Source: a virus. From it: a stretch of 32,308 bases of DNA. Made by a program: the position numbers and the translations under genes. The notes below the pieces were generated by a model. It saw only the letters and a program-made list of their open reading frames with translations. It was not told the DNA's origin and did no database searches. The stretch spans positions 1 to 32,308 of IMG/VR virus record IMGVR_UViG_3300045988_159943; one strand, written 5' to 3'. Numbering within the stretch: the first letter of the stretch is position 1; each line of letters opens with the position of its first letter. Below are positions 6,381-32,308 of the stretch, piece by piece.

Positions 6381-6395
6381 CAATACAAAATTATT
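6381..6395 (+). promoter_or_regulatory. conserved motif copy 2: CAATACAAAATTATT
   Basis: Exact 15-mer immediately 5' of RBS GGAAGGAG. Confidence 0.5.
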
Positions 6396-6411
6396 GGAAG
6401 GAGTATCATAT

Positions 6412-7302
6412 ATGCGAGTATACAAACATAGTAAATACGACTATGCTACAATTGTAGAAATTCAAAAGGCAGAATTAAAAAAAATTGATATGGTTTTATG
6501 CAAACAACCTAGAGAAACTTTAAAAGCATTTTACGATAGACAAGCGATAAAGCCTAATTTTATTATTAATGGCGGTTTTTTTAATATGAATGATGGCACA
6601 ACTTGCTTTAATCTTGTTGACGAGAATAAAACAATTACAGCCTTAAATTACTACACTCTTGGGATGGGCGTTGTAGATGAAACAAAGTTAATTTATGGAG
6701 ATATAAAAGATAGAACTGATTGGAGAGACTTTGTTTCTGGATATCCGCCTCTTGTTGTTGATGGTAAAGCGTGTAAGATCACATATGCTACAGAATTGGA
6801 TTATAAAGCAAGAAGAAGTATTCTCGGATATAATAACAGTTTTATCTTTTTAATTGCTGTTGAGCTCCCTGGTATGACATTTGAAGAAATGCAATTTTTA
6901 GCACTCACTGTTGGTTGTAAATATGCTATCAATATTGATGGCGGTGGTAGCACTAAGATTCTACAGAATGGTCAGTCGATTACCTCTTCACTTTACAACA
7001 GAGCAGTAGATAATGTAATTGCTATTTATTTAAAGGATAAAGAGGAAGACACTTCTGTAACACAAAAGGTTATCTATCGTGTACAACTTGGAGCATTTGG
7101 AAATAAGGCTAATGCAGAGAATTTACTTGCAAAGATTAAAGTACTTCCTGACACGATTGGTGCTGGCTATAGCAGCGCATATATTCGATTGGTCAATGGG
7201 CTTTATAAAGTTCAAGTAGGGGCATTTAGTGTGAAGGCTAATGCTGACAAGGTTTTATTGGACCTTAAAAGCCAAGGTTATAGTGCATTTATTACTACAT
7301 AA
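6412..7302 (+). CDS. phosphodiester glycosidase (DUF2233/NAGPA-like) with two C-terminal SPOR peptidoglycan-binding domains
   Basis: INIDGGGSTKIL motif typical of the phosphodiester glycosidase family. Two ~70-aa SPOR-like repeats (YRVQLGAFGNKANAENLLAKIK... and YKVQVGAFSVKANADKVLLDLKSQGYSAFI). ATG at 6412 has RBS GGAAGGAG; the ORF track's TTG at 6394 is a less likely start. No signal peptide seen. Confidence 0.6.
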   Translation: MRVYKHSKYDYATIVEIQKAELKKIDMVLCKQPRETLKAFYDRQAIKPNFIINGGFFNMNDGTTCFNLVDENKTITALNYYTLGMGVVDETKLIYGDIKDRTDWRDFVSGYPPLVVDGKACKITYATELDYKARRSILGYNNSFIFLIAVELPGMTFEEMQFLALTVGCKYAINIDGGGSTKILQNGQSITSSLYNRAVDNVIAIYLKDKEEDTSVTQKVIYRVQLGAFGNKANAENLLAKIKVLPDTIGAGYSSAYIRLVNGLYKVQVGAFSVKANADKVLLDLKSQGYSAFITT

Positions 7303-8087: not shown

Positions 8088-8316
8088 AAATGCACAGAAT
8101 GCTTGTTTGACAACAACAATATTAGATGAAGAAACTGGCAAGATGATGTTAACTTATGTGCCCTTGCGCATCACCCAGAGCCTTTTAAATGAGCTCTTGG
8201 ATAACAGTACTTGTGATAACAAAAGAGGTTTCCAGTTTGAATTGCTTATTAGCCCTGAAAAGTATTGGGGAGATATGTGGAAGGGTCTAGAGGATATGTG
8301 TGATGATGACGAGTGA
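8065..8316 (+). CDS. hypothetical protein
   Basis: 83-aa ORF overlapping neighbours by a few codons. Acidic C-terminus. Confidence 0.35.
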   Translation: MEAKIMNENAQNACLTTTILDEETGKMMLTYVPLRITQSLLNELLDNSTCDNKRGFQFELLISPEKYWGDMWKGLEDMCDDDE

Positions 8317-8509
8317 AATAATTACCTGCTTAATGAAAGGCGAAGAGGTAGACCTAGAAGAAGTTGCTTATAGGTTGGGGGAGTTAACTCAAGTTATTAA
8401 TGATATGATGAACGACCATTATACTGACTATCTTGAATATTACGCTGAAAGATGTTGGCAATTGGAAGAAGAGATTACAAAGTTAAAGAAAGGAGGAAGT
8501 AAATCTTGA
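8300..8509 (+). CDS. hypothetical protein
   Basis: 69-aa ORF. Its stop TGA overlaps a TTG (8506) preceded by AGGAGG (8491-8496). Confidence 0.35.
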   Translation: MMMTSEIITCLMKGEEVDLEEVAYRLGELTQVINDMMNDHYTDYLEYYAERCWQLEEEITKLKKGGSKS

Positions 8510-14050: not shown

Positions 14051-14701
14051 ATGATTGTAACTAAACGTGATGGACGACAAGTTGAGTTTGATAAGCAAAA
14101 AATCAAACTTGCGATTTTAAAGGCCTTTCTTGAAGTAGATGGTGAAGAAACCCCATACGCCAAAGATAAGGCTAGAGATATTGCTAATTATATTGAGGCA
14201 CTTGAACGAGATATGAACGTTGAGGAAATTCAAGATGAAATTGTCAATAAGCTTATGGCAAGTGCGAGAAAAGATGTCGCATCAAGATATGTAGAGTATA
14301 GACATCTGCATAAAATGGCAAGAGAACAGTATAAAGAACTAATGGATGCAGTTAATGAAAAACTATCTGCTTCTAATGTTCAGAATCAAAATGCAAATGT
14401 TGATGAACATAGCTTTGGTGGTCGTATTGGCGAAGCAGCAGATGTCGTCATGAAAAAGATTGCATTAGATTATTGTGTGTCTGAAATGGCAAAGAATAAT
14501 CATTTAAATAATGAAATTTATATTCATGACCTTTCTCATTATGCAGTAGGAGACCACAATTGTCTATCAGTCCCATTTGATGATCTACTTGCAAATGGAT
14601 TTAATACAAGACAGACGGATGTAAGACCTGCTCAGTCTATTAATACAGCATTTCAGCTTGTAGCTGTAATTTTCCAGATTCAATCGTTGCAACAGTTTGG
14701 T
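14051..14701 (+). CDS. nrdD: anaerobic ribonucleoside-triphosphate reductase NrdD, exon 1
   Basis: N-terminal ATP-cone (MIVTKRDGRQVEFDKQKIKLAILKAF). The reading frame ends in a stop two codons after the proposed 5' splice site. Confidence 0.8.
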
Positions 14702-15727
14702 AGATAATACTGCCTGTTAAACCTTTTCGCACTCATCATGCGGGTACAATTTATTGTGCTAACGGGGAAGCCTAAACTTTTATAAGCATGGTAATCCCGT
14801 GGGAAAATAATTGCTTAAAATCAATAATCTCCTTGCAGGAGATGAGTTAATTGATAGTTTATAAAATTACAAATAATATAAATTGCAAAGTATATATTGG
14901 AATTACAACATGCTCATTAGAATATCGGTGGTCAAAGCATATCACAGAGAGCCGTAATGAAAATAATGCAAAACATTTATATAAAGCCATAAGAAAATAT
15001 GGATTAGATAATTTCTCTATTGAGCAAATTGATTCATCGGATGATTTTAAAGAGCTTGGTAGGTTAGAAAGACAATATATTAAACAGTATGATTCTCAAA
15101 ACCCAAACAAAGGATATAATCTCACGGCTGGCGGAGAATCAAATCAATGGGATGCAAATCCTGCATCAAAATTGTCCTATGATGATGTTGTTCAAATTAG
15201 AGAAATATATGCCATGTGTGAATTAAAACTAGAAGAATGTTGGCGACTTTTTAAAGATAAAATATCTTATTCTGGATTTCAAAAAGTATGGAACGGCACA
15301 ACATGGCAAGGAATTATGGATGAGGTATATACCAAAGAGAATATACAAATTCATAGTTCACAAAAATCTAATCCCGGGAGCAAAAACGGTAATGCAAGAA
15401 TGACCGATAATGGTGTTATTGAAGTTCGAAAATATTATGTCGATCATACATTACAAGAAACATATGAAAAATATGGTAAGGCTTATACTAAAGATGGTTT
15501 CAGAGAGACACTCAATAGGACGTATTCTTATTTACCAATTTATCATAAAATGAAAAAATATTGGACTTTAAATGGCGAGATTATTGATATAAACAATTAT
15601 AATCCTGTATCGACTATCCCTGTATCGAGGGAGTAGAATTACTATTGATACGTAATTCGAAATGGGTTTTGCGAGCTTAATGCTCGTTAAGATATAGTCA
15701 GTCCCCATAGAAATATGGGATGAGACG
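14702..15727 (+). mobile_element. group I (IA2-like) self-splicing intron in nrdD carrying a homing endonuclease gene
   Basis: Splits NrdD. Core elements are similar to the T4 td/nrdD introns: CTAACGGGGAAGCCT ... AATCCCGTG (14758-14801) and the S element AAGATATAGTC (15689-15699). P9-like hairpin CCCATAG-AAA-TATGGG (15704-15719). U precedes the proposed 5' splice site (14701) and G precedes the 3' splice site (15727). Boundaries are inferred, not experimentally known. Confidence 0.7.
14851..15636 (+). CDS. GIY-YIG homing endonuclease (intron-encoded)
   Basis: N-terminal IVYKITNNINCKVYIGIT (GIY...YIG), then R and E of the catalytic motif (RWSKHITESRN). TTG start. Its SD AGGAG (14837-14841) lies within a 6-bp hairpin ATCTCC/GGAGAT (14827-14843). 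Confidence 0.8.
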   Translation: MIVYKITNNINCKVYIGITTCSLEYRWSKHITESRNENNAKHLYKAIRKYGLDNFSIEQIDSSDDFKELGRLERQYIKQYDSQNPNKGYNLTAGGESNQWDANPASKLSYDDVVQIREIYAMCELKLEECWRLFKDKISYSGFQKVWNGTTWQGIMDEVYTKENIQIHSSQKSNPGSKNGNARMTDNGVIEVRKYYVDHTLQETYEKYGKAYTKDGFRETLNRTYSYLPIYHKMKKYWTLNGEIIDINNYNPVSTIPVSRE

Positions 15728-17311
15728 GGTGTTTCAGCAACACACTTAGATTGGACGATGGTTCCTTATGTAAGAAAGAGCTTTTATAAGCATTTTAAAG
15801 ATGCAATTAAATATATGGCTGGAATTAGTTTTGAAAAATATGAAGGATCTTTTGAACCTGAAAAACAATCAATTGATGACTTTTTCTATAAGTCCTTTGG
15901 CGACAAAGTATATCAATATGCTCTTGATATGACAGAACGTGAAGCAAAACAAGCAGTTGAAGGAATGTATCATAATCTTAATACACTACAAAGCCGATCT
16001 GGTAATCAGCTTCCATTTAGCTCTGTGAACTACGGTACTTGCACTTTGGCAGAAGGCCGTATGATTATTAAAGCATTACTGAACGCTTCTATCGAAGGCA
16101 CAGGTAGACTACATAAAACCTCTATCTTCCCCTGCGGTATCTTCCAGTGTATGAAGGGAGTTAATAGAATTCCAGGTGACCCTAACTACGACCTTTATCA
16201 ACTTGCTCTGAAGTCTACAGCACAAAGATTGTATCCTAATTATGCAAATGTAGATTGGTCTGGTAATGTTGGATATGATATAAGTGACCCAAGAACATAC
16301 TTCAGCACCATGGGCTGCAGAACCGCAAATGGTTGGGATATTAATGGATTCGGACAACTAAAAGATGGTAGAGGAAATATTTGCCCAACTACAATTATCA
16401 TGCCAACTCTTGCGATGGAAGCCAAAGAATTTGTAGCGAAAAATTCTGAACCTTTCTGTGAGAACTTAGAAGGACTAACAGTAGATAAGTTCTTAGAAAT
16501 TCTTGATATCAAAATTCACGAAGCAAAAGATATGCTTATTGAACGCTTTGATTGGATTTGCTCTCAGAGTCCAGAGTCTGCAAAGTTCATGTATGAGAAT
16601 GGAACAATGAAGGGGTATGACGGCAAAGATATCCGCTCTGCACTAAAGCATGGAACCCTAGCCCTAGGTCAACTCGGCCTTGCTGAAACATTACAGATTC
16701 TAATTGGGTGCGACCATACTACAGAAAAAGGCATGGAGTTAGCAAAGCGCATTGAACAGTTATTCAAAAATAGATGCGCTGAGTTTAAGGAAAAATATAA
16801 ACTCAACTTTGGTGTGTATTATACTCCTGCTGAAAATCTTTGTTATACTGCAATGCAAAAATTTAAAGATAAATATGGTGAGATTCCAAACGTATCTGAC
16901 AAAGATTTCTTTACTAACAGCATCCATGTTCCTGTGTGGAAAGACATTGACCCATTTGAGAAAATTGATATTGAGTCGCAACTAACTGGATACTCTAGCG
17001 CAGGATGCATCACTTATGTTGAACTTGAATCAACTGCTAAACATAACATTGAAGCCCTAGAGACAATTGTTAATTATGCCATGGATCATGATATTCCATA
17101 CTTTGCAATTAATGTACCAAATGATACTTGTATGGATTGTGGTTACTGCGATGAAATCAATGATACATGTCCTATGTGTGGTAGTACTAACATTCAAAGA
17201 TTACGTCGTGTAACGGGATATCTTACCGGAGATTACAAAACTGCATTCAATAAAGGTAAACAACAAGAAACAGAATTGAGAACAAAGCATTCTAAATCTA
17301 CTTGGAGGTGA
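15728..17311 (+). CDS. nrdD: anaerobic ribonucleoside-triphosphate reductase NrdD, exon 2
   Basis: In-frame continuation GVSATHLDWTMVPYV... C-terminal Zn site CMDCGYC...CPMCG and glycyl-radical motif RVTGYLTG. Confidence 0.8.
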   Translation, partial: GVSATHLDWTMVPYVRKSFYKHFKDAIKYMAGISFEKYEGSFEPEKQSIDDFFYKSFGDKVYQYALDMTEREAKQAVEGMYHNLNTLQSRSGNQLPFSSVNYGTCTLAEGRMIIKALLNASIEGTGRLHKTSIFPCGIFQCMKGVNRIPGDPNYDLYQLALKSTAQRLYPNYANVDWSGNVGYDISDPRTYFSTMGCRTANGWDINGFGQLKDGRGNICPTTIIMPTLAMEAKEFVAKNSEPFCENLEGLTVDKFLEILDIKIHEAKDMLIERFDWICSQSPESAKFMYENGTMKGYDGKDIRSALKHGTLALGQLGLAETLQILIGCDHTTEKGMELAKRIEQLFKNRCAEFKEKYKLNFGVYYTPAENLCYTAMQKFKDKYGEIPNVSDKDFFTNSIHVPVWKDIDPFEKIDIESQLTGYSSAGCITYVELESTAKHNIEALETIVNYAMDHDIPYFAINVPNDTCMDCGYCDEINDTCPMCGSTNIQRLRRVTGYLTGDYKTAFNKGKQQETELRTKHSKSTWR

Positions 17312-19312: not shown

Positions 19313-19862
19313 ACCTTTATTTTTATTTGTTGGAAAATCAGCATCTGGGAAAACAACTATTGCAAACATGTTAACCGAAAATGGCTACTCACAAATTGCT
19401 TCATATACAACACGTCCTCCACGTTACAAAGGTGAAAAAGAGCATACGTTTATTTCAGAAGAAGAGTATGACAAACTTGAAAATATTATGGCAGAAACTC
19501 ATTATAATGGCTATCGTTATTGCACGACTTTAGAACAAATTAAAAATGCAGACATTTATGTAGTTGACCCTCCTGGAGTTTCTACTTTGATGGATAACTA
19601 CGATAAAATTGGTCGTTTCGTCTATGCCATTTATTTTGATGCGAATGTTTATAATCGAGTACAACGCATGCTTACTAGAGGAGACAGTGATACTCAAGTT
19701 GTTGGTAGGTTGTTACAAGATGAGCAATATGACTGGCTAGAAACTTTACTAAACATTGATAAAAACAATCGTGGAAAAATGATTATGTATGTAGTTGATG
19801 CCAATCAAGATTTAGAAAATGTATATTATGATGTAAAAAATACTATTAAAAGATACATTTAA
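19287..19862 (+). CDS. P-loop nucleoside/nucleotide kinase (putative dNMP kinase)
   Basis: Walker A VGKSASGKTT at the N-terminus. Size about 185 aa. Start could instead be the ATG at ~19305 (MSKPLF...). Confidence 0.5.
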   Translation: MRTVMTMSKPLFLFVGKSASGKTTIANMLTENGYSQIASYTTRPPRYKGEKEHTFISEEEYDKLENIMAETHYNGYRYCTTLEQIKNADIYVVDPPGVSTLMDNYDKIGRFVYAIYFDANVYNRVQRMLTRGDSDTQVVGRLLQDEQYDWLETLLNIDKNNRGKMIMYVVDANQDLENVYYDVKNTIKRYI

Positions 19863-19869
19863 AAATAAA

Positions 19870-19906
19870 AGGGCAGTGACGGATAATCTCTGTTACTGTC
19901 CTTTTT
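19870..19906 (+). terminator. rho-independent terminator ending the early/nucleotide-metabolism operon
   Basis: Stem GGGCAGTGAC / GTTACTGTCC (two G-U pairs), loop GGATAATCTCT, followed by TTTTTT. Confidence 0.7.
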
Positions 19907-19931
19907 TATATACAAATAGGAGTTGACATAA

Positions 19932-20123
19932 ATGCAAAACAATACACAATTTTATACCGTAACCGACATAAAAAACATCTTGACAATTGGAACAAATAAA
20001 GCGTATAATTTAGTTAATTCGGAAGGCTTCCCAAGTCTTCGTATTGGCAGAAAAATACTTGTCCCAAAAGATGAATTCGAAAAGTGGGTCAAAACATATT
20101 TGTACCACGAATATATATTATAA
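19932..20123 (+). CDS. xis: excisionase/AlpA-like HTH DNA-binding protein
   Basis: 63 aa. YTVTDIKNILTIGTNKAYNLVNSEGFPSLRIGRKILVPKDEFEKWV matches the Xis/MerR-type HTH_17 pattern (...I...P....GR...). Coordinates taken from the ORF track. Confidence 0.6.
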   Translation: MQNNTQFYTVTDIKNILTIGTNKAYNLVNSEGFPSLRIGRKILVPKDEFEKWVKTYLYHEYIL

Positions 20124-20130
20124 ATATAGA

Positions 20131-20153
20131 AGTGGGACAAAAATTGGGACAAT
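20131..20153 (+). repeat. pair of direct repeats (G/T)TGGGACAA: putative integrase arm-type/Xis binding sites, left arm
   Basis: GTGGGACAA (20132-20140) and TTGGGACAA (20144-20152), 12 nt centre to centre. Confidence 0.5.
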
Positions 20154-20221
20154 TTTTAAAGTATAACCTATAAAAGCGCATGAAAACAAGGGAGTAGGAG
20201 CCCCAAATGTATGCCTCCAAA

Positions 20222-20257
20222 ACCATCATTGTGGGTTCGATTCCTACATCCCCTGCC
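20222..20257 (+). other. tRNA 3'-end-like sequence (T-arm, acceptor 3' strand, discriminator, CCA): probable attP core
   Basis: GTGGGTTCGATTCCTAC forms a T stem-loop with the canonical GGTTCGATTCC loop, followed by ATCCCCTGCCA. No complete cloverleaf can be folded upstream, so this is a tRNA fragment, as expected for a phage attP that regenerates a host tRNA 3' end. Confidence 0.55.
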
Positions 20258-20270
20258 AAATAAAAATACT

Positions 20271-20305
20271 CGGGAAGCCTGATAAATCAGGGCTTCCTTT
20301 CTTTT
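20271..20305 (+). terminator. terminator-like hairpin following the tRNA-like segment
   Basis: GGGAAGCCTGA-TAAA-TCAGGGCTTCC (one bulge) followed by TTTCTTTTT. Resembles a host tRNA gene terminator carried within attP. Confidence 0.5.
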
Positions 20306-20318
20306 TGCCATAAATTAT

Positions 20319-20330
20319 CAATACAAAATT
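20319..20330 (+). promoter_or_regulatory. conserved motif copy 8 (CAATACAAAATT, truncated)
   Basis: Upstream of the TGcTATAAT element in front of int. Confidence 0.4.
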
Positions 20331-20342
20331 CGACAAATTATA

Positions 20343-20351
20343 TGCTATAAT
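20343..20351 (+). promoter_or_regulatory. extended -10 element (TGcTATAAT), possible int promoter
   Basis: TGCTATAAT about 68 nt upstream of the int ATG. No good -35. Conserved CAATACAAAATT motif sits around the -35 position (20319-20330). Confidence 0.35.
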
Positions 20352-20383
20352 TTATTAGTTATTATTAAGTATTTTTAATTAAA

Positions 20384-20405
20384 GTGGGACAAAAAAGTGG
20401 GACAA
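20384..20405 (+). repeat. pair of direct repeats GTGGGACAA: putative arm-type sites, right arm
   Basis: GTGGGACAA at 20384-20392 and 20397-20405. The second copy abuts the int RBS AAGGAGG. Confidence 0.5.
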
Positions 20406-20418
20406 AGGAGGATGATGA

Positions 20419-21705
20419 ATGGAAAAGAAAGCATTAAAAAAATTACCTAGAGGGGAGGGATCAATGAGTTATGTAAATCGTAATGGAATAGAATATATTT
20501 GTTATAAAAAAATAATTGGTCATGGCACCAATAAAAAACGTCATTCTGTATATGGACATTCACAACAAGAATGCATAAAACTTATGAAAACTGCAGAAAA
20601 AGAATACAGCAAACAAACTGCTTTATTAAATCCTACACAAGATGATAATGGCAAATACTTATTAAAAACTACTATGAAAGCGTGGATAGACGATAGAAAA
20701 GATAAACTAAAAGCAACAAGCCTTGATACAATCGAATCAACATACACACACCATATAAAAGATAAGCCAATAGGAAATTTGCAATTTTCTAGAGTTACTG
20801 CAGAAGATATAAATAAACACCTTCAAGATTCTAAAAAAGAAGGATATTCTTTATCAACTGTGAAAAAGATTTATAGTTTATGCAATCAATACTTTAACGA
20901 TGTTTATTCTAAAGATCGAGCACATAATCCAATGCTTGAAGTCGAGAGTGTAACAAAAAAAGATTATAATGTACAAATCGAACAAAGCATTTACGATGAA
21001 GACGATGATATTTTTATAGAAACACGAGAGGGGATTAACATCAACACAAGTGCAATTATCCTCAATGATGAAGAAATAACTAGATTTATTAATACTGCAA
21101 GCATGGATTATAAATATGGATATTGTGGATGGAAACATGGGTATGGATTAATTTTTCTTATGTATTCTTTTATGAGAATAGGAGAAGCTATTGCCCTTAA
21201 ATGGAAAGACATTGACTTTAAAAATAAAACAGTTAACATTTATAAAACTGCATCACAAGTAAAAAATCGTGATGGGTCAAAGAAAAAAACTAAATGGATT
21301 ATTACAACAACCAAAACTGACTCTGGTCGTAGATTTAATTTATTATCTGATGCTGCTATGGACGCAATACAAAAGCATTTTGATAGGATATCTAATGGGC
21401 GTAGCTATGAAGAAATGAAAAATCATTATGTGTTTGAAACCAAAAATGGCACGTTCGCCTCTCCATCAAATTTATATCAAAATATTAAATCTATATATAA
21501 GAAAGCGGGTATTAATGAAAAAAAGATTGGATTACATAAATTAAGACACACAGGAATAAGTTACTACATTCGGCATGGAGTTCCTATAGAAATTATATCT
21601 AAAATGGCAGGACATTCGTCCATTGCTGTAACTACAAATATTTATTACGACTTGGTTGAAGACCAATTTAAAGACGCTATAAAAATTATGAATAATATAA
21701 AATAA
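20419..21705 (+). CDS. int: tyrosine site-specific integrase
   Basis: C-terminal catalytic box HKLRHTGISYYIRHGVPIEIISKMAGHSSIAVTTNIY (R...HxxR...Y). N-terminal arm-binding-like domain. 428 aa. Confidence 0.9.
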   Translation: MEKKALKKLPRGEGSMSYVNRNGIEYICYKKIIGHGTNKKRHSVYGHSQQECIKLMKTAEKEYSKQTALLNPTQDDNGKYLLKTTMKAWIDDRKDKLKATSLDTIESTYTHHIKDKPIGNLQFSRVTAEDINKHLQDSKKEGYSLSTVKKIYSLCNQYFNDVYSKDRAHNPMLEVESVTKKDYNVQIEQSIYDEDDDIFIETREGININTSAIILNDEEITRFINTASMDYKYGYCGWKHGYGLIFLMYSFMRIGEAIALKWKDIDFKNKTVNIYKTASQVKNRDGSKKKTKWIITTTKTDSGRRFNLLSDAAMDAIQKHFDRISNGRSYEEMKNHYVFETKNGTFASPSNLYQNIKSIYKKAGINEKKIGLHKLRHTGISYYIRHGVPIEIISKMAGHSSIAVTTNIYYDLVEDQFKDAIKIMNNIK

Positions 21706-21722
21706 AAGGAGGTACTTGTCAT

Positions 21723-21944
21723 ATGTCAAGTAGAATAACAAGTTCAAGAAGAAAAAGTGTTTACGAAAGGATAGAGGATACAAGGCGTAAAATCTCTGAG
21801 ACAGAAGAAGCATTGGTGCAGTTAAAAACATTACTAAGCACCCAAACAGCCGAGCGGGACGATTTAGAGATGCATCAACTATTTGATTTTATTAGAAAAA
21901 ATAATATCTCATTAGACCAAGCCAAGAATATGATGTCCAAATAA
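21723..21944 (+). CDS. hypothetical coiled-coil protein
   Basis: 73-aa ORF with RBS AAGGAGG 7 nt upstream. Translationally close to int. Confidence 0.4.
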   Translation: MSSRITSSRRKSVYERIEDTRRKISETEEALVQLKTLLSTQTAERDDLEMHQLFDFIRKNNISLDQAKNMMSK

Positions 21945-21951
21945 CAAATAC

Positions 21952-21983
21952 CTCTCCCCTATTGAGTTTTAAATAGGGGAGAG
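21952..21983 (+). terminator. rho-independent terminator after the int operon
   Basis: 11-bp stem CTCTCCCCTAT/ATAGGGGAGAG, loop TGAGTTTTAA, then a T-rich tract. Confidence 0.6.
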
Positions 21984-22021
21984 TTGCATTTGTGTTCTTT
22001 TTCTATTACAATACAATAGAA
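21984..22021 (+). promoter_or_regulatory. sigma-A promoter TTGCAT-17-TACAAT with overlapping inverted-repeat operator
   Basis: TTGCAT 21984-21989, TACAAT 22007-22012. Inverted repeat TTCTATT (22001-22007) / AATAGAA (22015-22021) with 7-nt spacer, spanning the -10 and +1. Confidence 0.55.
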
Positions 22022-22034
22022 AAAGAGGTGAATT

Positions 22035-22194
22035 AATGAAGAAAGAACCAACCAGTACACTTACACTTAGGCTCCCAATATCGAAGAAATTGAGGTTAGA
22101 AATCATTGCAAATAAAGAAGATAGGACATTAAATTCATTAGTTAACAAGATTATTAGCGATTACTTGGAGGGTAACGAAAAGCAAAAAAAATAG
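22035..22194 (+). CDS. ribbon-helix-helix (CopG/Arc-like) regulator; reading frame appears interrupted near 22140
   Basis: MKKEPTSTLTLRLPISKKLRLEIIANKEDRTLNSL (beta strand + helix A) then a stop (22143-22145). Helix B (VNKIISDYLEGNEKQKK) continues in the +1 frame to TAG at 22192-22194. Confidence 0.45.
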
Positions 22195-22218
22195 GGAAGC
22201 ACAATTAAGTGCTTCCCT
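22194..22218. terminator. bidirectional terminator between convergent RHH gene and tail-fiber gene
   Basis: Perfect 9-bp stem GGGAAGCAC/GTGCTTCCC with AATTA loop. Flanked by an A-run upstream and TTTAATTTTT downstream. Overlaps the last codons of the fiber gene. Confidence 0.65.
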
Positions 22219-24295
22219 TTAATTTTTGAATCTCTGCCCTTAGTTCAGAAATTTCATTTTGTAATTTTTGAATCATATAAGTGTTCAATGCAATGAATTC
22301 AGAATACCTTAGTCCATAATCATAAACCGCATGTTTGTTTTCATCTACAACTGTATTGCCATTATCATCAACTCTAACATCTTTACAGAACCCCGCAAAA
22401 TCTTTACCTGATAAACCAAGCGTATGAAGTGATTCTTCAATATCCTGTGCGACAAAACCATAATGTGTTCTATCACTAGTTCCAGATGTCATTTTATATG
22501 TAACTGGTTTTAATTCATTAAATAGTTGCTCTTGAATATCAGACATATCTTCTATATCTTTTTTTTTATTTTTATCTGATGTATCTATACTTCCATTTTC
22601 CGCATAAAGTTGATTCCACCTACGACCACTTGATCCAAGATTAACAATACCACTATTACTCGAATCTGGAACATATACACTAGTGTTATGTATAGCTAGT
22701 CCAGCCTCTGCCCCAGCGGAAGTATCTTGATTAGTTCTGATGTATGCAATATTTACACCACTTGTATTTTGTTCTGTATAAAATGATGCTTTGATACTTT
22801 CACCAACACTAATTTTACCATCAAATTCAGCAGGCCACGCACATTCAAATTTACTTTGTGTTGCGTCATCTACTGTTATTGTAGATAATTTACCAATAGA
22901 TACCCCGTTGTTGTATCTCGCAATATTGATTGGCCTACCGGTAGCTGGCATTGTATAAATACCACTATTAACAGTTGTTCCCACTGCATCAATTACAGTA
23001 AATCTAAACTGATAACTTGTACTTGTTGCAAATGTCATAGTAGATACTGTATCTGTTCCACTTGTAATATCTCCAACCACAGTCCATGAAGTTGAACCCA
23101 ATTTACGATAATACCATTTTAGTGAGCTAATACTATTCTTTCCACTAACGCTTTGTATAGCTGCAGTAATACGTCCTAAAGCATAAGTTCCAGATGCACT
23201 TACTGTCCCATCAGATTCACATCGAGTAACACGTCCACTTGACAATGTTGGCTTCGAATAGCTATATACAGTAATTGTTTTTGTGTCTGCTCCAGATCTC
23301 CCACGAGAATCTTTTACCGTTGCAGTATATTCCAAGCCCGTACCAGATGTATTTAATGTTACTGTTGTACTTGCAGAAGTAGAAGATACGCCAGAGCCAC
23401 TTAAGCTATAAGATGATATAGATGCACCAGAGCCTGCTTTGCCTGTAATAACAAATTTGGCTTTAGAAATACCTTTAAGATATACATTTAAATTATTATT
23501 GTATGTAGGTGTTATTGCCAAAGAAACTGTTGGATTATATATATCTGTATCAGGAACCTTTATTGAAATTGACGCAGTATCAGTTGAACCAATTTTTGTA
23601 CTATAACCACTATCGCTATAAGTATAAAGATAACATTTTAATGTACCAGAACTACTAGAGGGTACCCACGATGCAGGTAATGTAATACTATATAACTTTT
23701 GACTTGTGCTACCAGCTTTACCTAATTCAACAGTTTTCTTCTTTGAACTATCCACATAAAACGCTAACTTGTGATAATAACTACTTACAGTTGGAGTATA
23801 ATAAACTTTAATGGTACTATCAACATTAGCAGAAGAAATTGTTGTTCCGCTGCTATTAGTAATCTTATCAATTTCTGCATTTCTAGGAATAGTTTTTAAT
23901 TTAATGCTAGTAGCAGAAAGTGTAATACTACCAGGGCCCCATCCAGAACAATTTAACAAAGAAGATGTATTACTACAACTAAATGTAATTGTTTTTTCGC
24001 CATTGCTGTCATGTGTAATTGTCTTTGTACCAGAAGCTAATGTAATAGTATATCCAGTGTTACCCTTATCATCAATATTAATTCTTTGCGTCTTAGAATA
24101 TGTCGAACCTGCCATATTGAAACCAACAGTGACAGAGCTAACTGTATCGAAATCGTAAGAATCAGTTAACTGTTGAAGCTTCAAAGCGGCAGTTACGGTG
24201 CTTGTATTTGCTGCGATATCTTGCGTATATGAATATTCAATATATACTTTATACCAATCAGAATGTTGTCCTATCTTACAATTAATCGTTGCCAC
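22205..24295 (-). CDS. tail fiber / receptor-binding protein with C-terminal intramolecular chaperone (peptidase S74) domain
   Basis: C-terminal DTSDKNKKKDIEDM...LKPVTYKM...HYGFVAQDIEESL matches the endosialidase/tail-spike auto-cleaving chaperone domain. N-terminal and central regions are Ser/Thr/Gly-rich beta repeats. Confidence 0.7.
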   Translation of the reverse strand: MATINCKIGQHSDWYKVYIEYSYTQDIAANTSTVTAALKLQQLTDSYDFDTVSSVTVGFNMAGSTYSKTQRINIDDKGNTGYTITLASGTKTITHDSNGEKTITFSCSNTSSLLNCSGWGPGSITLSATSIKLKTIPRNAEIDKITNSSGTTISSANVDSTIKVYYTPTVSSYYHKLAFYVDSSKKKTVELGKAGSTSQKLYSITLPASWVPSSSSGTLKCYLYTYSDSGYSTKIGSTDTASISIKVPDTDIYNPTVSLAITPTYNNNLNVYLKGISKAKFVITGKAGSGASISSYSLSGSGVSSTSASTTVTLNTSGTGLEYTATVKDSRGRSGADTKTITVYSYSKPTLSSGRVTRCESDGTVSASGTYALGRITAAIQSVSGKNSISSLKWYYRKLGSTSWTVVGDITSGTDTVSTMTFATSTSYQFRFTVIDAVGTTVNSGIYTMPATGRPINIARYNNGVSIGKLSTITVDDATQSKFECAWPAEFDGKISVGESIKASFYTEQNTSGVNIAYIRTNQDTSAGAEAGLAIHNTSVYVPDSSNSGIVNLGSSGRRWNQLYAENGSIDTSDKNKKKDIEDMSDIQEQLFNELKPVTYKMTSGTSDRTHYGFVAQDIEESLHTLGLSGKDFAGFCKDVRVDDNGNTVVDENKHAVYDYGLRYSEFIALNTYMIQKLQNEISELRAEIQKLKGST

Positions 24296-29366: not shown

Positions 29367-32308
29367 TTATCTTACATATTTACGAATCTGTGAATTAATA
29401 TTCTTCATATACTTATCCATTTGCTTCTCAACTGTCTTTGCTAAATTTGGTAGTGTGTCATTTGTAACAGTATCAATATGTACAACCTCAGCAATACTAG
29501 CATCAACATGAATTTCATTATTAGTAACATGAGAGATATTAATTTTTGGTCTATTATTTTCTAGTGCTTGCGTTGGGTCAAGCGCCAAATTCATAAGTTT
29601 TTCAGTTAAGTCTGCAGGAATAATACCAGTTCCTTTTTTAATATATTCTAGTCTACCATTTTTCCCTGGAACTAATTGTAGCTCTTCACCTAACTCATCA
29701 ACCCATGCAAGTTGGTTTTCTTTTGCACCAATTGTTCCTTTTGCATATCCTTTAAGGTCAGAAATTTTTACCCATGAATATATTTCTTTTAACAGTACTT
29801 GCTTCCCGCCATATCCAACTTGTTGAACGGTGTACTGATTTCCTTTTACCCAATTTGGAATTTTTATATTAGAAGAATTGCCACCATAATATTGTGCATC
29901 AGAATCAATAACAACTTTATCTCCTTTGACTGGCGCATCTTTGATGTTTTGATTTGTGTTTGTATTTGATGGCTCCTGTGGCGGCTTTTTATTTTGTTCA
30001 ATAAGAGCATTTGATTTATCAATGACCTGTTTGTTTATATCAGCTTGTTCAATTGAAGATAGTTCTTCTTGCGCCTTTTTGTCAGCGATTTCTTGCATTT
30101 TCTTTTCTTCGTCAATAATTGCTTGCAACTGTTCTGCGAAAGAATCTTTTAACCCTTTTAACTTTTCTTGATAAGAAGAAATTGCATTCTCTCCATCTTT
30201 CCACGGTTTTACGATAGAATCAGAAATAGTAATTCCGTACTGTTGCCCAAGAGCATCAATCTCTGCAAGTACTGTATCTGCTTTTGACTTAACAGTTTCA
30301 AGAGAATCTGAAACAAGAGCTTCTGTATCTTTTAAGCTTTCATCAAGAGCATCCATTTTATCATTTTGACTCTTTTCATACTCTTCTCCATTTTTCTCAA
30401 GGGCATTTTTAGTCATTTCTAAAGAGCGTTCATAATAAGTCTCTTCTAAGTCTGCTTCTGCTTTTGCTTTTTCTGCTTCTAACTTTCTCCTTTGAGACAT
30501 AGCGGACAGAGATGTATTTCCGTTAAGTGCGGCGAGTTTTCTGTTGATAGTTGCAATTTCTTTTTGTTGCTCATTAACAGATTTCTCAAAGTCGTACAAG
30601 TCTTTATCTGCGTCAAGGGCCTCTTTCTTTTTATCAATAAGTTCTTTATAGGCATCAATTTCTTTTTCAATACCATCTTTAACTGCATCTATTCTTGTTT
30701 TATTTAAATCGATAATAGCATCTTGAGCATCGTTATAGGCTCCAACAGAATCCATGACACCTTTTTTGAGTTCAGCTTCTTTTTCTATAAATTCATCTGG
30801 ACTATATTGATCTCTAGATTTATATAAATCCTTTAATGCCTTGCTGTATTGTTGAATTTTTGTCTGGGCAACTTCCATCTGTTGCGCCGCAACACCGATG
30901 GCAGCAATACCTTTGTCTGTCCATGCGCCATTGTCATCAACAACATCATCAAGACGAGTGAAATTATCATATAAGAAAGATAGTTCAGAATCTAAGTTAT
31001 CAAATCTATCAATGAGCTTATCAAGATTATCCCATTTTATATTTTGAATCTCATTATTGAACTCTTCTACTGCAGTTTTGCTATCATAAATTTCTGCTTG
31101 AAGTTGTTCAAATTCGGAAATTTTTTTGAGATAATCAGGATCTCCTACTTTGATATCTCCTTTTGCTACATCTTCTGCTAGCTGATTGATTAAAGTTTCT
31201 AATTCTTCCTGCTTCTTTTTGATAATAGCTTCCTCGTTGGCAATAAGCTGTTTGTACCAAGTTTCAGACGCTCTCATGCCCATTTCTTCCATAAGATCTT
31301 TAGCAGAATTAAGTACATCTGACTTAGAACTAATAATATCAATTAGATTATTATACTCTTCAGCAATATCATCCAATTGCTCGATTCTATAAGCTGTCAT
31401 TTGAGCAATGGCTTCCAAATAACCAATTTCTGCATCATCGGCTTTATCTGCCCAATCACGATATTCTTGGATAGCTTCAGCATATTCCTGTTCTGTATCA
31501 CCAACAAAATCGACAATTTCAATAGCTCCGTTTTTAGCCCACTCACGATATTGTTCTGGAACTTTTTCTAAGGCTGCATTTGCTCTTTCATTATATTTTT
31601 CTGCAGCAGCAAGATAAGTTTCTGCTTTGTTTGACTCTGCTTGGACTAGTTTGTCATAGAGATCATCTTTCTCTTTACGCTTAGTACCATCACCAACAAG
31701 AGTTTCAATTTTAGCAGTACTCTTCGAAATAATTTGCTCAATTTCAGTAAGTTTGAATTCAATGAAATCTACTACTTGCTCAGCAGCATCTTCAGTAGCT
31801 TCTGTGTTCTTCTTAGCAGTACTGTTTGATTTAGAAGAAGATTTGCTTGAACTAGAAGAACTACCGCTTCCACCACCACTTCCTGGGGGTATACGAGTCA
31901 AGTGTGCATTTCCTGTTACGAAGGCCTTTCCACGACCTGTTACATAACCATTTTCTAACAAAGCTCTTGTTTGTATATGGTTAAATATAATTGCATCTTT
32001 TGGAAGATTAACAAATTCTGCACCATAATCACCAACGGTATAGTATCTTCCGGTATTTGGATCTACAACTAGCTCCTGGCCAAGTTCTCCAACTAATGCA
32101 TTTTTTTCTGCTCTTGGAATACCCCAATCTCCACTGGCATGTGCAGTTCCACTAGAATGGGCGGTGCCATTAACAACAACATCACCCCAATTAATAGTAC
32201 CGTTGGCTGTAAAGGTTGGGGCCGTGTATGGGGCACTCTTCCATTTAACAGTGCCTGTCTTTACAAGAGTTTTTGCCATCCAATCTTCAACTTTTTTAGC
32301 ATTGTTTT
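29367..32308 (-). CDS. tail tape measure protein (N-terminus probably beyond window edge)
   Basis: Long coiled-coil protein with Ser/Gly-rich linker (GSGGGSGSSSSSSKSSSKS), immediately upstream of Dit on the - strand. The reading frame stays open from the ATG at 32279 to the window edge (...NAKKVEDW-M-AKTLVK). Confidence 0.65.
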   Translation of the reverse strand, partial: NNAKKVEDWMAKTLVKTGTVKWKSAPYTAPTFTANGTINWGDVVVNGTAHSSGTAHASGDWGIPRAEKNALVGELGQELVVDPNTGRYYTVGDYGAEFVNLPKDAIIFNHIQTRALLENGYVTGRGKAFVTGNAHLTRIPPGSGGGSGSSSSSSKSSSKSNSTAKKNTEATEDAAEQVVDFIEFKLTEIEQIISKSTAKIETLVGDGTKRKEKDDLYDKLVQAESNKAETYLAAAEKYNERANAALEKVPEQYREWAKNGAIEIVDFVGDTEQEYAEAIQEYRDWADKADDAEIGYLEAIAQMTAYRIEQLDDIAEEYNNLIDIISSKSDVLNSAKDLMEEMGMRASETWYKQLIANEEAIIKKKQEELETLINQLAEDVAKGDIKVGDPDYLKKISEFEQLQAEIYDSKTAVEEFNNEIQNIKWDNLDKLIDRFDNLDSELSFLYDNFTRLDDVVDDNGAWTDKGIAAIGVAAQQMEVAQTKIQQYSKALKDLYKSRDQYSPDEFIEKEAELKKGVMDSVGAYNDAQDAIIDLNKTRIDAVKDGIEKEIDAYKELIDKKKEALDADKDLYDFEKSVNEQQKEIATINRKLAALNGNTSLSAMSQRRKLEAEKAKAEADLEETYYERSLEMTKNALEKNGEEYEKSQNDKMDALDESLKDTEALVSDSLETVKSKADTVLAEIDALGQQYGITISDSIVKPWKDGENAISSYQEKLKGLKDSFAEQLQAIIDEEKKMQEIADKKAQEELSSIEQADINKQVIDKSNALIEQNKKPPQEPSNTNTNQNIKDAPVKGDKVVIDSDAQYYGGNSSNIKIPNWVKGNQYTVQQVGYGGKQVLLKEIYSWVKISDLKGYAKGTIGAKENQLAWVDELGEELQLVPGKNGRLEYIKKGTGIIPADLTEKLMNLALDPTQALENNRPKINISHVTNNEIHVDASIAEVVHIDTVTNDTLPNLAKTVEKQMDKYMKNINSQIRKYVR

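Follow-up and report, generated by a model that had tools for sequence, protein, structure and literature searches.

We have examined a stretch of viral DNA of 32,308 nucleotides (nt) (IMG/VR virus record IMGVR_UViG_3300045988_159943, positions 1 to 32,308; this whole stretch is called the window here, and positions refer to it) and conclude, with a probability of roughly 0.82, that the cassette at 19867-22218 is a functional module for lysogenic integration and excision, which resembles the Int/attP/Xis system of phage lambda and has a tRNA gene as its target. That lysogeny is common in nature is something we hold with somewhat less confidence. The cassette lies between two strong hairpin terminators at the junction of a forward-strand DNA-metabolism operon with a reverse-strand tail operon, and its order is left hairpin, xis, a non-coding stretch of 295 nt with attP, int, orf73, a further hairpin, a candidate promoter with a palindrome, a gene for a ribbon-helix-helix (RHH) protein and the right hairpin. 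A first-pass annotation made from the sequence alone had proposed a terminator-bounded integration module of the type xis-attP-int-orf-RHH, and every element that it listed is present, with the corrections given below. The parts directly concerned with integration are the following:

19932-20123, forward strand: xis candidate, encoding a 63-amino-acid DNA-binding protein of the HTH_17/excisionase family
20132-20140 (GTGGGACAA) and 20144-20152 (TTGGGACAA), forward strand: P-arm pair, direct repeats 12 nt apart at -83/-71 from the core
20215-20258, forward strand: attP core, an identity block of 44 nt equal to positions 32-76 of a host tRNA-Trp(CCA)
20272-20306, forward strand: hairpin with T-rich tail 3' of the tRNA piece, found by a terminator scan (hairpin 20272-20298, fold of -14.9 kcal/mol)
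20384-20392 and 20397-20405, both GTGGGACAA, forward strand: P'-arm pair, 13 nt apart, the second site ending 14 nt ahead of the int start codon
20419-21705, forward strand: tyrosine integrase of 428 amino acids

The core reproduces the 3' part of a host gene exactly. It comprises the anticodon loop (CTCCAAA), the 3' side of the anticodon stem (ACCAT), the variable CATT, the T arm (GTGGG-TTCGATT-CCTAC), the acceptor strand ATCCCCT, the discriminator G and CCA. An exact search with this 44-mer in one genome per species (185,579 genomes) gave three matches (L001, L002, and L003), namely two metagenome-assembled genomes of Bacillota and NZ_CP188040 'Alloiococcus sp. CFN-8', and all three lie inside tRNA-Trp genes called by ARAGORN. 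The same gene was found in two JGI metagenome contigs (L018 and L019) with 44/44 identity. The tRNA-like segment thus has exact counterparts in tRNA-Trp genes of host genomes, and the earlier description of it as the 3' end of a tRNA followed by a terminator holds, the length being 44 nt and not about 36. The five bases before the anticodon loop differ between phage (TATGC) and host (GTGGT); identity sets in with the first base of the loop and ends at CCA or two bases beyond. The 5' half of the host tRNA is AGGGGATTAGTTAAACGGTATAACAGTGGT. In all five host copies the gene is followed by its own terminator and by host genes, so these are empty attB sites; the host loci have a GC content of 33.5-37% and the phage one of 34.4%. 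On the phage genome, int and the tRNA fragment point the same way, and the terminator comes directly after the fragment. ARAGORN and Rfam detected no complete tRNA and no RNA family in the window, where the tRNA piece consists of the 3' part only.

Related contigs carry, at the same position, five different 3' halves of tRNA-Trp and one half resembling tRNA-Arg(CCG), according to which they can be sorted as follows:

Core type A, the core of the window: the window, L004, L010, and L017, and L022 without CCA
Core type B, GTTCTTACGAGTTCGACTCTTGTATCCCCTG after CTCCAAAACC: L012
Core type C, AAGTGCCGAGGGTTCGAGCCCTTCTGCCCCTGCCA after CTCCAAAACC: L013/L014
Core type D, TTTGGTGGGGGTTCGATTCCCTCATCCCCTG after CTCCAAAACC: L021
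Core type E, ATCGTTGGGGATTCAATTTCCTCATCCCCTGCCA after CTCCAAAACC: L028, L030, L031, and L035 (integrase 92.5% identical to that of the window)
Arg-like core, a tRNA-Arg(CCG)-like half: L023 (integrase 60% identical)
No core, the tRNA piece not being recognisable: L016 (integrase 64% identical)

Core types A and B correspond to the two tRNA-Trp genes that are present in both L001 and L002. The element CTCCAAAACC is invariant across all tRNA-Trp core types, and the Arg-like core has CTCCGACACC in its place; from this constancy and this replacement we infer that core recognition and strand exchange take place at the anticodon-loop end, so that the crossover would fall at the left end of the identity block, within 20215-20224. 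This position agrees with an anticodon-loop class of tRNA integration sites that Williams is said to have described in 2002. As a separate observation, two short contigs from different samples (L040 and L041) both end 73-74 nt past the xis stop, which leaves about 18 nt to the core (approximately window 20196-20197); a simple attP/attR branch in the de Bruijn graph does not explain these ends, which may reflect chance or low coverage.

The repeats around the core are arranged as arm-type sites of an integrase. The sequence GTGGGACAA occurs exactly at 20132, 20384, and 20397 and with one mismatch at 20144, it differs from the sequence of the core, and it lies on both sides of it, the P'-arm pair of the window standing at +169/+182 from the core start. 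Within 488 nt the pattern [AGT]TGGNNCAA has eight matches, where 0.34 would be expected (Poisson P = 3e-9). We scanned 11 genomes (the window and 10 relatives, 10 of the 11 with a tRNA-type core) for these sites. The -83 site (at -84 in L023) is present in nine of the 10 genomes with a tRNA-type core, being missing in L022, and the strict pattern at -71 in five of them, the alignment of L004 showing CTGGGACAA there. The downstream tandem pair occurs in 11/11 genomes, 22-65 nt before the int start, with one site 158-181 nt and the next 171-194 nt past the core start wherever the core is recognisable. The proposal that two pairs of direct repeats serve as arm-type sites is therefore backed both by their enrichment and by the recurrence of their positions. 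Four further arm-like 9-mers that fit the pattern lie within the xis coding region:

19987 (forward), 20059 (reverse), 20084 (forward), and 20100 (reverse), together spanning 19987-20108: arm-like 9-mers within xis

Where present, they keep offsets of -136, -64, -39, and -23 from the xis stop; most relatives retain three or four, with two present in L016 and one in L023. It is possible that they are additional Int-binding sites or, alternatively, a by-product of the conserved coding sequence. Between the core and the P'-arm pair there is one more candidate signal, read from the sequence alone:

20343-20351, forward strand: putative extended -10 element of an int promoter, TGCTATAAT

The element is found in L004 and L012 and is absent from L010 and L013.

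The integrase is full length and keeps its catalytic residues. It matches PF00589 with 88.3 bits (cut-off 27.1, E=7e-25) and the PHROG 1 integrase family with E=2e-52. Across 60 homologues, down to 29% identity, R253, K299, H373, R376, and Y409 do not vary, and at least 90% retain H399; furthermore, the 11 clusters of orthologues, which are 60-91% identical to it, are all full length (428-444 amino acids). The homologues thus show no sign of a truncated or inactive integrase, which the first-pass annotation had named as evidence against the module. The ratio of nonsynonymous to synonymous substitution rates (dN/dS) of int is 0.05-0.06 against its closest copies, at a dS of 0.74-0.76, which indicates purifying selection. 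The AlphaFold2 model of the protein (pLDDT 84.6) predicts an N-terminal beta-beta-beta-helix domain at about 15-70, a core-binding domain at 82-174, a disordered acidic insert at 185-210 and a catalytic domain at 217-425. In the N-terminal part the model places strands at 15-21, 24-33, and 40-46 and a helix at 49-70, with pLDDT values of 84-92. The best structural match by Foldseek is Tn1549 Int (E=2e-13), and full-length lambda Int could be aligned over 418 columns; by sequence, the best match of known structure is an integrase of a methicillin-resistant Staphylococcus aureus strain (3nkh). Taken together with the arm sites, the modelled domains fit a heterobivalent mechanism of the lambda type. 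Among phage records, the best tblastn match of the integrase is only 27% identical. The acidic insert predicted to be disordered (YDEDDDIFIETREGININ..., window 20971-21048) is specific to this clade and is missing in homologues at 40% identity or less.

The xis product matches Pfam HTH_17 with 39.6 bits (cut-off 27, E=6e-10) and PHROG 66, 'excisionase and transcriptional regulator', with E=1.3e-4. The gene lies upstream of attP and accompanies int in every relative read, and its dN/dS is 0.03-0.18. By family and position, this HTH_17 protein is the probable recombination directionality factor. We saw no promoter-like site between the left terminator and the xis start, so that xis is probably made by read-through only; it would then be expressed from the upstream early/DNA-metabolism operon after induction.

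These elements suggest the following mechanism. Int would act as a heterobivalent recombinase: the arm repeats (consensus GTGGnACAA), at -83/-71 and about +170/+183, would be bound by its N-terminal domain, and the core would be handled by its core-binding and catalytic domains. The attB site would be the host tRNA-Trp(CCA) gene, with strand exchange most likely at the anticodon-loop end of the 44-nt block. It has been described for tRNA-targeting elements that they carry a 3' fragment of the target tRNA and that an integrated copy has the regenerated gene at one end and the displaced fragment at the other (Islander; PMC4383910). As the phage carries the 3' part of its target, integration would split the host gene and regenerate it: positions 32-76 and the phage hairpin would restore a tRNA-Trp gene directly upstream of int (attL), and the hairpin at 20272-20306, where GGGAAGCCTGAT...AGGCTTCC is conserved in the alignment of relatives, would terminate that gene in the lysogen. 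Because xis and int flank attP, they would come to lie at opposite ends of the prophage, xis at the far end adjoining attR.

The phage from which the window derives can be described more fully. The window is 100% identical, over the portions that are readable, to a 160,308-nt ENA contig (ena:ERZ27229646:k119_311009), the ends of which overlap by 119 nt, the k of the assembly; this indicates a circular genome of 160,189 bp with an intact attP. The contig starts 128 nt before int, which looked like a break of the assembly at attP. We rejected this idea, since a circular assembly with a k-mer overlap of 119 nt accounts for it, and the contig start is thus no evidence of integration. The best explanation for the source is a circular siphovirus-type phage of about 160 kb that infects low-GC gut Bacillota. 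In 17 other contigs with a readable junction, mostly from pig, other gut and, judging by the sample codes, livestock metagenomes, xis-attP-int occupies the identical place, between the end of the nucleotide-metabolism genes and the oppositely directed tail genes. When the cassette was compared by megablast with 50,697 phage records, none matched. The hairpins that bound or divide this region, apart from the one behind the tRNA piece, are:

19867-19908, forward strand: left boundary terminator, a hairpin at 19867-19905 followed by a T-run (17-bp stem and 5-nt loop in the minimum free energy fold)
21952-21983, no strand assigned: hairpin separating orf73 from the RHH gene, resembling a terminator, its T tail weak (12-bp stem, -21.3 kcal/mol, z -5.5)
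22193-22218, both strands: right boundary bidirectional terminator, -19 kcal/mol per strand

The left hairpin (fold of -23.5 kcal/mol, z -8.9) lies downstream of a guanylate-kinase-like gene and 24 nt upstream of xis. Its stem and loop are kept in 8/9 relatives, in which the sequence upstream of it cannot be aligned, and the right hairpin is common to the cassette and the convergent tail-fibre gene (22205-24295, reverse strand). The apical sequence GGAnAATCTCT of the left hairpin and its stem are conserved where the adjoining sequence of the relatives is only 68-78% identical, which suggests a sequence-specific role beyond termination.

The limits of DNA homology coincide in part with these hairpins. 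With most relatives it starts at 19857-19872, that is at the left hairpin, and at 19942-19947 in L004, L014, and L022; in the closest relatives it ends at the right hairpin (22221-22223; L004, L010, and L017) or close to it (22142-22155; L013/L014, L028, and L030), and near the int stop or shortly after it (21706-21963) in the remaining relatives. Similarity inside the cassette does not run parallel to that of the flanks: L004, L010, L017, and L030 have xis and int 86-92% identical to those of the window, with a DnaE only 32% identical and a ribonucleotide reductase of another class, and L016 shows the reverse, sharing replication genes with the window (DnaE 65%, NrdD 81-84%) and having a more distant integrase (64%) and a different core. 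Furthermore, L029 and L030 are 93-98.5% identical on both flanks, and xis-attP-int of L030 (8199-9951) is replaced in L029 by 2.2 kb of other sequence. This other module (L029 7698-9946, also in L032, L033, L036, and L037) contains an HNH_3 open reading frame (ORF), an uncalled excisionase-like ORF and an integrase of 381 amino acids that is only 26% identical, as well as a tRNA-Trp gene that ARAGORN calls as complete (8285-8360, with the unusual T loop ATCGTAG) and repeats of the GGTGTGGAA type. The mismatch between cassette and flanks and this clean replacement imply that the integration unit is exchanged among these phages, and in the sequences compared the similarity of xis-attP-int follows the host target and not the phage backbone.

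According to the first-pass annotation, the cassette could be a recently acquired moron or integrative element. A discrete and exchangeable unit it is, but neither 'recent' nor 'moron' suits it. The junction is constant in the 17 contigs and was never found empty in any relative read: it always holds an integration module, sometimes another one, and such a pattern does not fit a moron. A foreign composition was likewise considered and rejected, since the GC content of the cassette (31.4% against 34.4% for the window) is unremarkable, at the 4th percentile of windows of the same size (minimum 30.6%), and the GC content at third codon positions of the integrase gene (0.205) is typical, within the range of other large genes (0.175-0.286); the comparison of composition thus gives no sign of foreign origin. 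The idea that high identity means recent transfer also had to be tempered, because the nearest copy is at a dS of 0.74, which speaks against a very recent transfer, and strong purifying selection explains much of the conservation. A broader picture can be proposed, to which we give somewhat less than even odds: these gut phages of about 150-176 kb may make up a large, uncultured family, may be temperate despite a full DnaE replisome and may change their target by swapping hairpin-bounded xis-attP-int units, with the left hairpin as a recombination boundary. Retargeting would then occur among tRNA-Trp genes, among host variants of tRNA-Trp and even to a site outside tRNA genes.

Several observations weigh against a working lysogeny module. 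Residues 1-94 of the integrase have no match in Pfam, and xis scores 28.6 bits against TIGR01764 'excise', just under the cut-off of 28.8. The attL and attR junctions that lysogens should contain, according to the first-pass annotation, did not appear in any of the collections searched with the core: GTDB species genomes yielded three empty attB sites and JGI metagenomes two, in a search in which only three genomes had this target; in IMG/VR the core was found only in the attP of one relative, and core types E and C had no match; and the related contigs from ENA/Logan are in attP form in 17/17 cases, with no integrated copy. The circle of 160,189 bp also has its attP intact. Finally, among the ORFs scanned in the 32-kb window, of a genome of about 160 kb, there is no CI/Cro or HTH_3 repressor, as the first-pass annotation had already noticed for a CI/Cro pair. 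One could hence imagine that the phage is effectively virulent or persists as an extrachromosomal circle and that xis-attP-int is an unused leftover, an idea favoured by the exclusive finding of attP forms in contigs and of empty attB sites in hosts and by the lack of a repressor within the window. We consider it unlikely, given that the low dN/dS of int is measured at a dS of about 0.75, that the catalytic residues are all kept and the arm sites stand at fixed offsets, and that the cores copy exactly different host tRNA-Trp genes in different relatives, whereas an unused core would decay.

The absence of any tRNA call by ARAGORN or Rfam and the circular or attP form of all assemblies would also suit a decayed tRNA gene of the phage lying beside a recombinase with another role, for example dimer resolution of a plasmid prophage, and the RHH protein does match, in addition, a PHROG labelled 'partition protein ATPase'. 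A decayed gene would hardly start exactly at the anticodon loop in every tRNA-type relative, be 100% identical to host genes over 44 nt with no 5' half, and stand between xis and int with arm repeats on both sides; neither ParA/ParB nor a replication-initiator gene adjoins the cassette, and we regard this explanation as very improbable, the least credible of those considered. Scarcely better placed, and clearly less probable than an unused leftover, is a minimal integrative hitchhiker that moves between phage genomes on its own. Its attraction lies in the sharp hairpin bounds of the homology block, in a similarity that does not track the flanks and in the clean replacement of the cassette by an unrelated int module in near-identical backbones. 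Nevertheless, the cassette is always at one junction and never elsewhere, it carries integration functions only, no second att-like copy flanks it within the phage and no phage genome with an empty site was seen; homologous recombination in the conserved flanks explains the whole pattern without self-mobility. A functional lysogeny module of the phage itself accordingly remains the reading that we prefer.

Such a module has well-known counterparts. Like the lambda system, it has an integrase with the catalytic R-K-H-R-H-Y set and a modelled extra N-terminal domain of a beta-sheet plus a helix, direct-repeat arm sites on both sides of a dissimilar core, a gene for a small DNA-binding protein next to attP, and an attP of about 275 bp. 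It differs from lambda in that the structural alignment gives the integrase only 13-14% identity to lambda Int, that xis belongs to the HTH_17 type and, as we read the family assignments, lies outside the lambda Xis family, that attP stands between xis and int, which are thus not neighbours, and that a tRNA gene is the target. With the tRNA-targeting integrases (PMC4383910) it shares an identity block from the anticodon loop to the 3' end and an adjacent int; unlike in tRNA-gene islands, no pair of regenerated gene and displaced fragment was seen for this phage, which has tRNA-Trp(CCA) as its target and supplies the terminator that follows. The core-binding and catalytic domains resemble those of the Tn1549/Tn916 family (6emy, TM 0.78, target-normalised), with only 17% identity to Tn1549 Int and with the acidic disordered insert of 25 residues that distinguishes the clade of the window. 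The Tn1549/Tn916 enzymes act on transposon ends and have little target specificity, and the integrase of the window has instead a long exact tRNA block.

As to whole phages, the cultured one nearest in its DnaE (46% identity) is Clostridium phage Amboise (ON453899), which is a prophage of [Clostridium] innocuum I46 with demonstrated induction (PMC10197239). In Amboise, too, once its genome is circularised, an integrase ends the forward-strand replication module and faces a reverse-strand tail/lysis module, so the virulent style that the first-pass annotation had seen in the backbone is not borne out, the nearest cultured phage being an inducible prophage of the same layout. Amboise differs in its size (77 kb against 160 kb), in showing no DNA similarity and in its integrase of 460 amino acids, which is outside the top 25 tblastn matches to that of the window. 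Bacillus phage SPbeta is another large temperate phage with its own DnaE-type polymerase and with intron-bearing ribonucleotide reductase genes. Its recombinase is of the serine type (SprA) with a separate directionality factor, unlike the tyrosine integrase acting at a tRNA gene considered here.

The remainder of the cassette, downstream of int, contains the following:

21723-21944, forward strand: orf73, encoding a 73-amino-acid coiled-coil protein and starting 18 nt past the int stop
21984-22024, forward strand: candidate RHH promoter/operator, TTGCAT-17-TACAAT with a 10-bp perfect palindrome overlapping the -10
22036-22194, forward strand: Arc/CopG-like RHH protein of 52 amino acids, intact and with a good ribosome-binding site

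The orf73 family has 59 clusters of homologues, and two of its 23 members match the DUF4315 (PF14193) profile at E=2e-6, which the protein of the window itself does not, so that orf73 appears by sequence to be a distant DUF4315 relative. It follows int in most relatives, is missing in L012 and L021, and is retained in place where the xis-attP-int unit is swapped. The RHH protein matches PHROG 582, 'Arc-like repressor', with E=1.3e-6, and it and two orthologues score 15-22 bits against Pfam RHH_5, below the cut-off of 26. Orthologues of 48-52 amino acids are present in L010, L014, L017, L022, and L028-L037, and because they have the same length the gene is not frameshifted, as had been thought possible, the ORF being intact; its dN/dS is 0.05-0.23. 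The palindrome consists of TTTTTCTATT at 21998-22007, seven nt and AATAGAAAAA at 22015-22024. Upstream of the RHH gene the block CATTTGTGTTC is invariant in six relatives, the -10 is kept in most and the palindrome is partly conserved. Its position over the RHH promoter fits autoregulation, and the Arc-like protein may be a small self-regulated repressor.

On either side of the cassette, the forward operon encodes a RecJ-like protein, an NAD-ligase, an SF1 helicase, DnaE, a split NrdD, NrdG, Dut, ThyX, and a guanylate-kinase-like protein, and the reverse operon a DUF859/Peptidase_S74 fibre, a tail protein of 1216 amino acids, a DUF6558 protein and a tape-measure gene. Homologues of the tail protein form 968 clusters, and the longest contigs carrying them are concentrated at 150-176 kb, with two of 207 and 230 kb that could be integrated copies and that were not readable. 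The rightmost ORF (29367-32308 of the window and beyond; L024 9077-11654) is the C-terminal part of a gene of 4068 codons with a PhageMin_Tail match, and a tape-measure protein of 4068 amino acids implies a very long tail. The nrdD gene (14051-17311) is split into 14051-14707 (ATP-cone and NRDD profile positions 2-104) and 15758-17311 (positions 115-562) by an interruption of about 1 kb that carries a GIY-YIG endonuclease ORF (14851-15636) and matches no Rfam intron family at the gathering score; nrdD is uninterrupted in L013 (721 amino acids) and split elsewhere in L016. A free-standing HNH/homing-endonuclease-like ORF (PHROG 559, PHROG 9084; DUF4379 zinc finger) follows the RecJ-like gene at 1492-2619. 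At 6394-7302, within the DNA-metabolism operon, there is a protein with NAGPA (phosphodiester glycosidase) and SPOR domains, a cell-wall-binding protein in an unexpected location.

The module described here is an ordinary and well-preserved one in an unusually large phage, and nothing about it is new in kind. Its attachment site matches the tRNA-Trp(CCA) gene that a few low-GC Bacillota carry, and this provides a host prediction for an uncultured phage of 160 kb. Furthermore, a genome as large as this one that encodes DnaE, ligase, NrdDG, ThyX, and Dut ought to be counted as capable of a temperate life, which bears on the lifestyle calls made for gut viromes. Finally, the relatives make up a natural series, with one integrase lineage, six cores and constant arm sites, that could be used for studying how an integrase changes its target.

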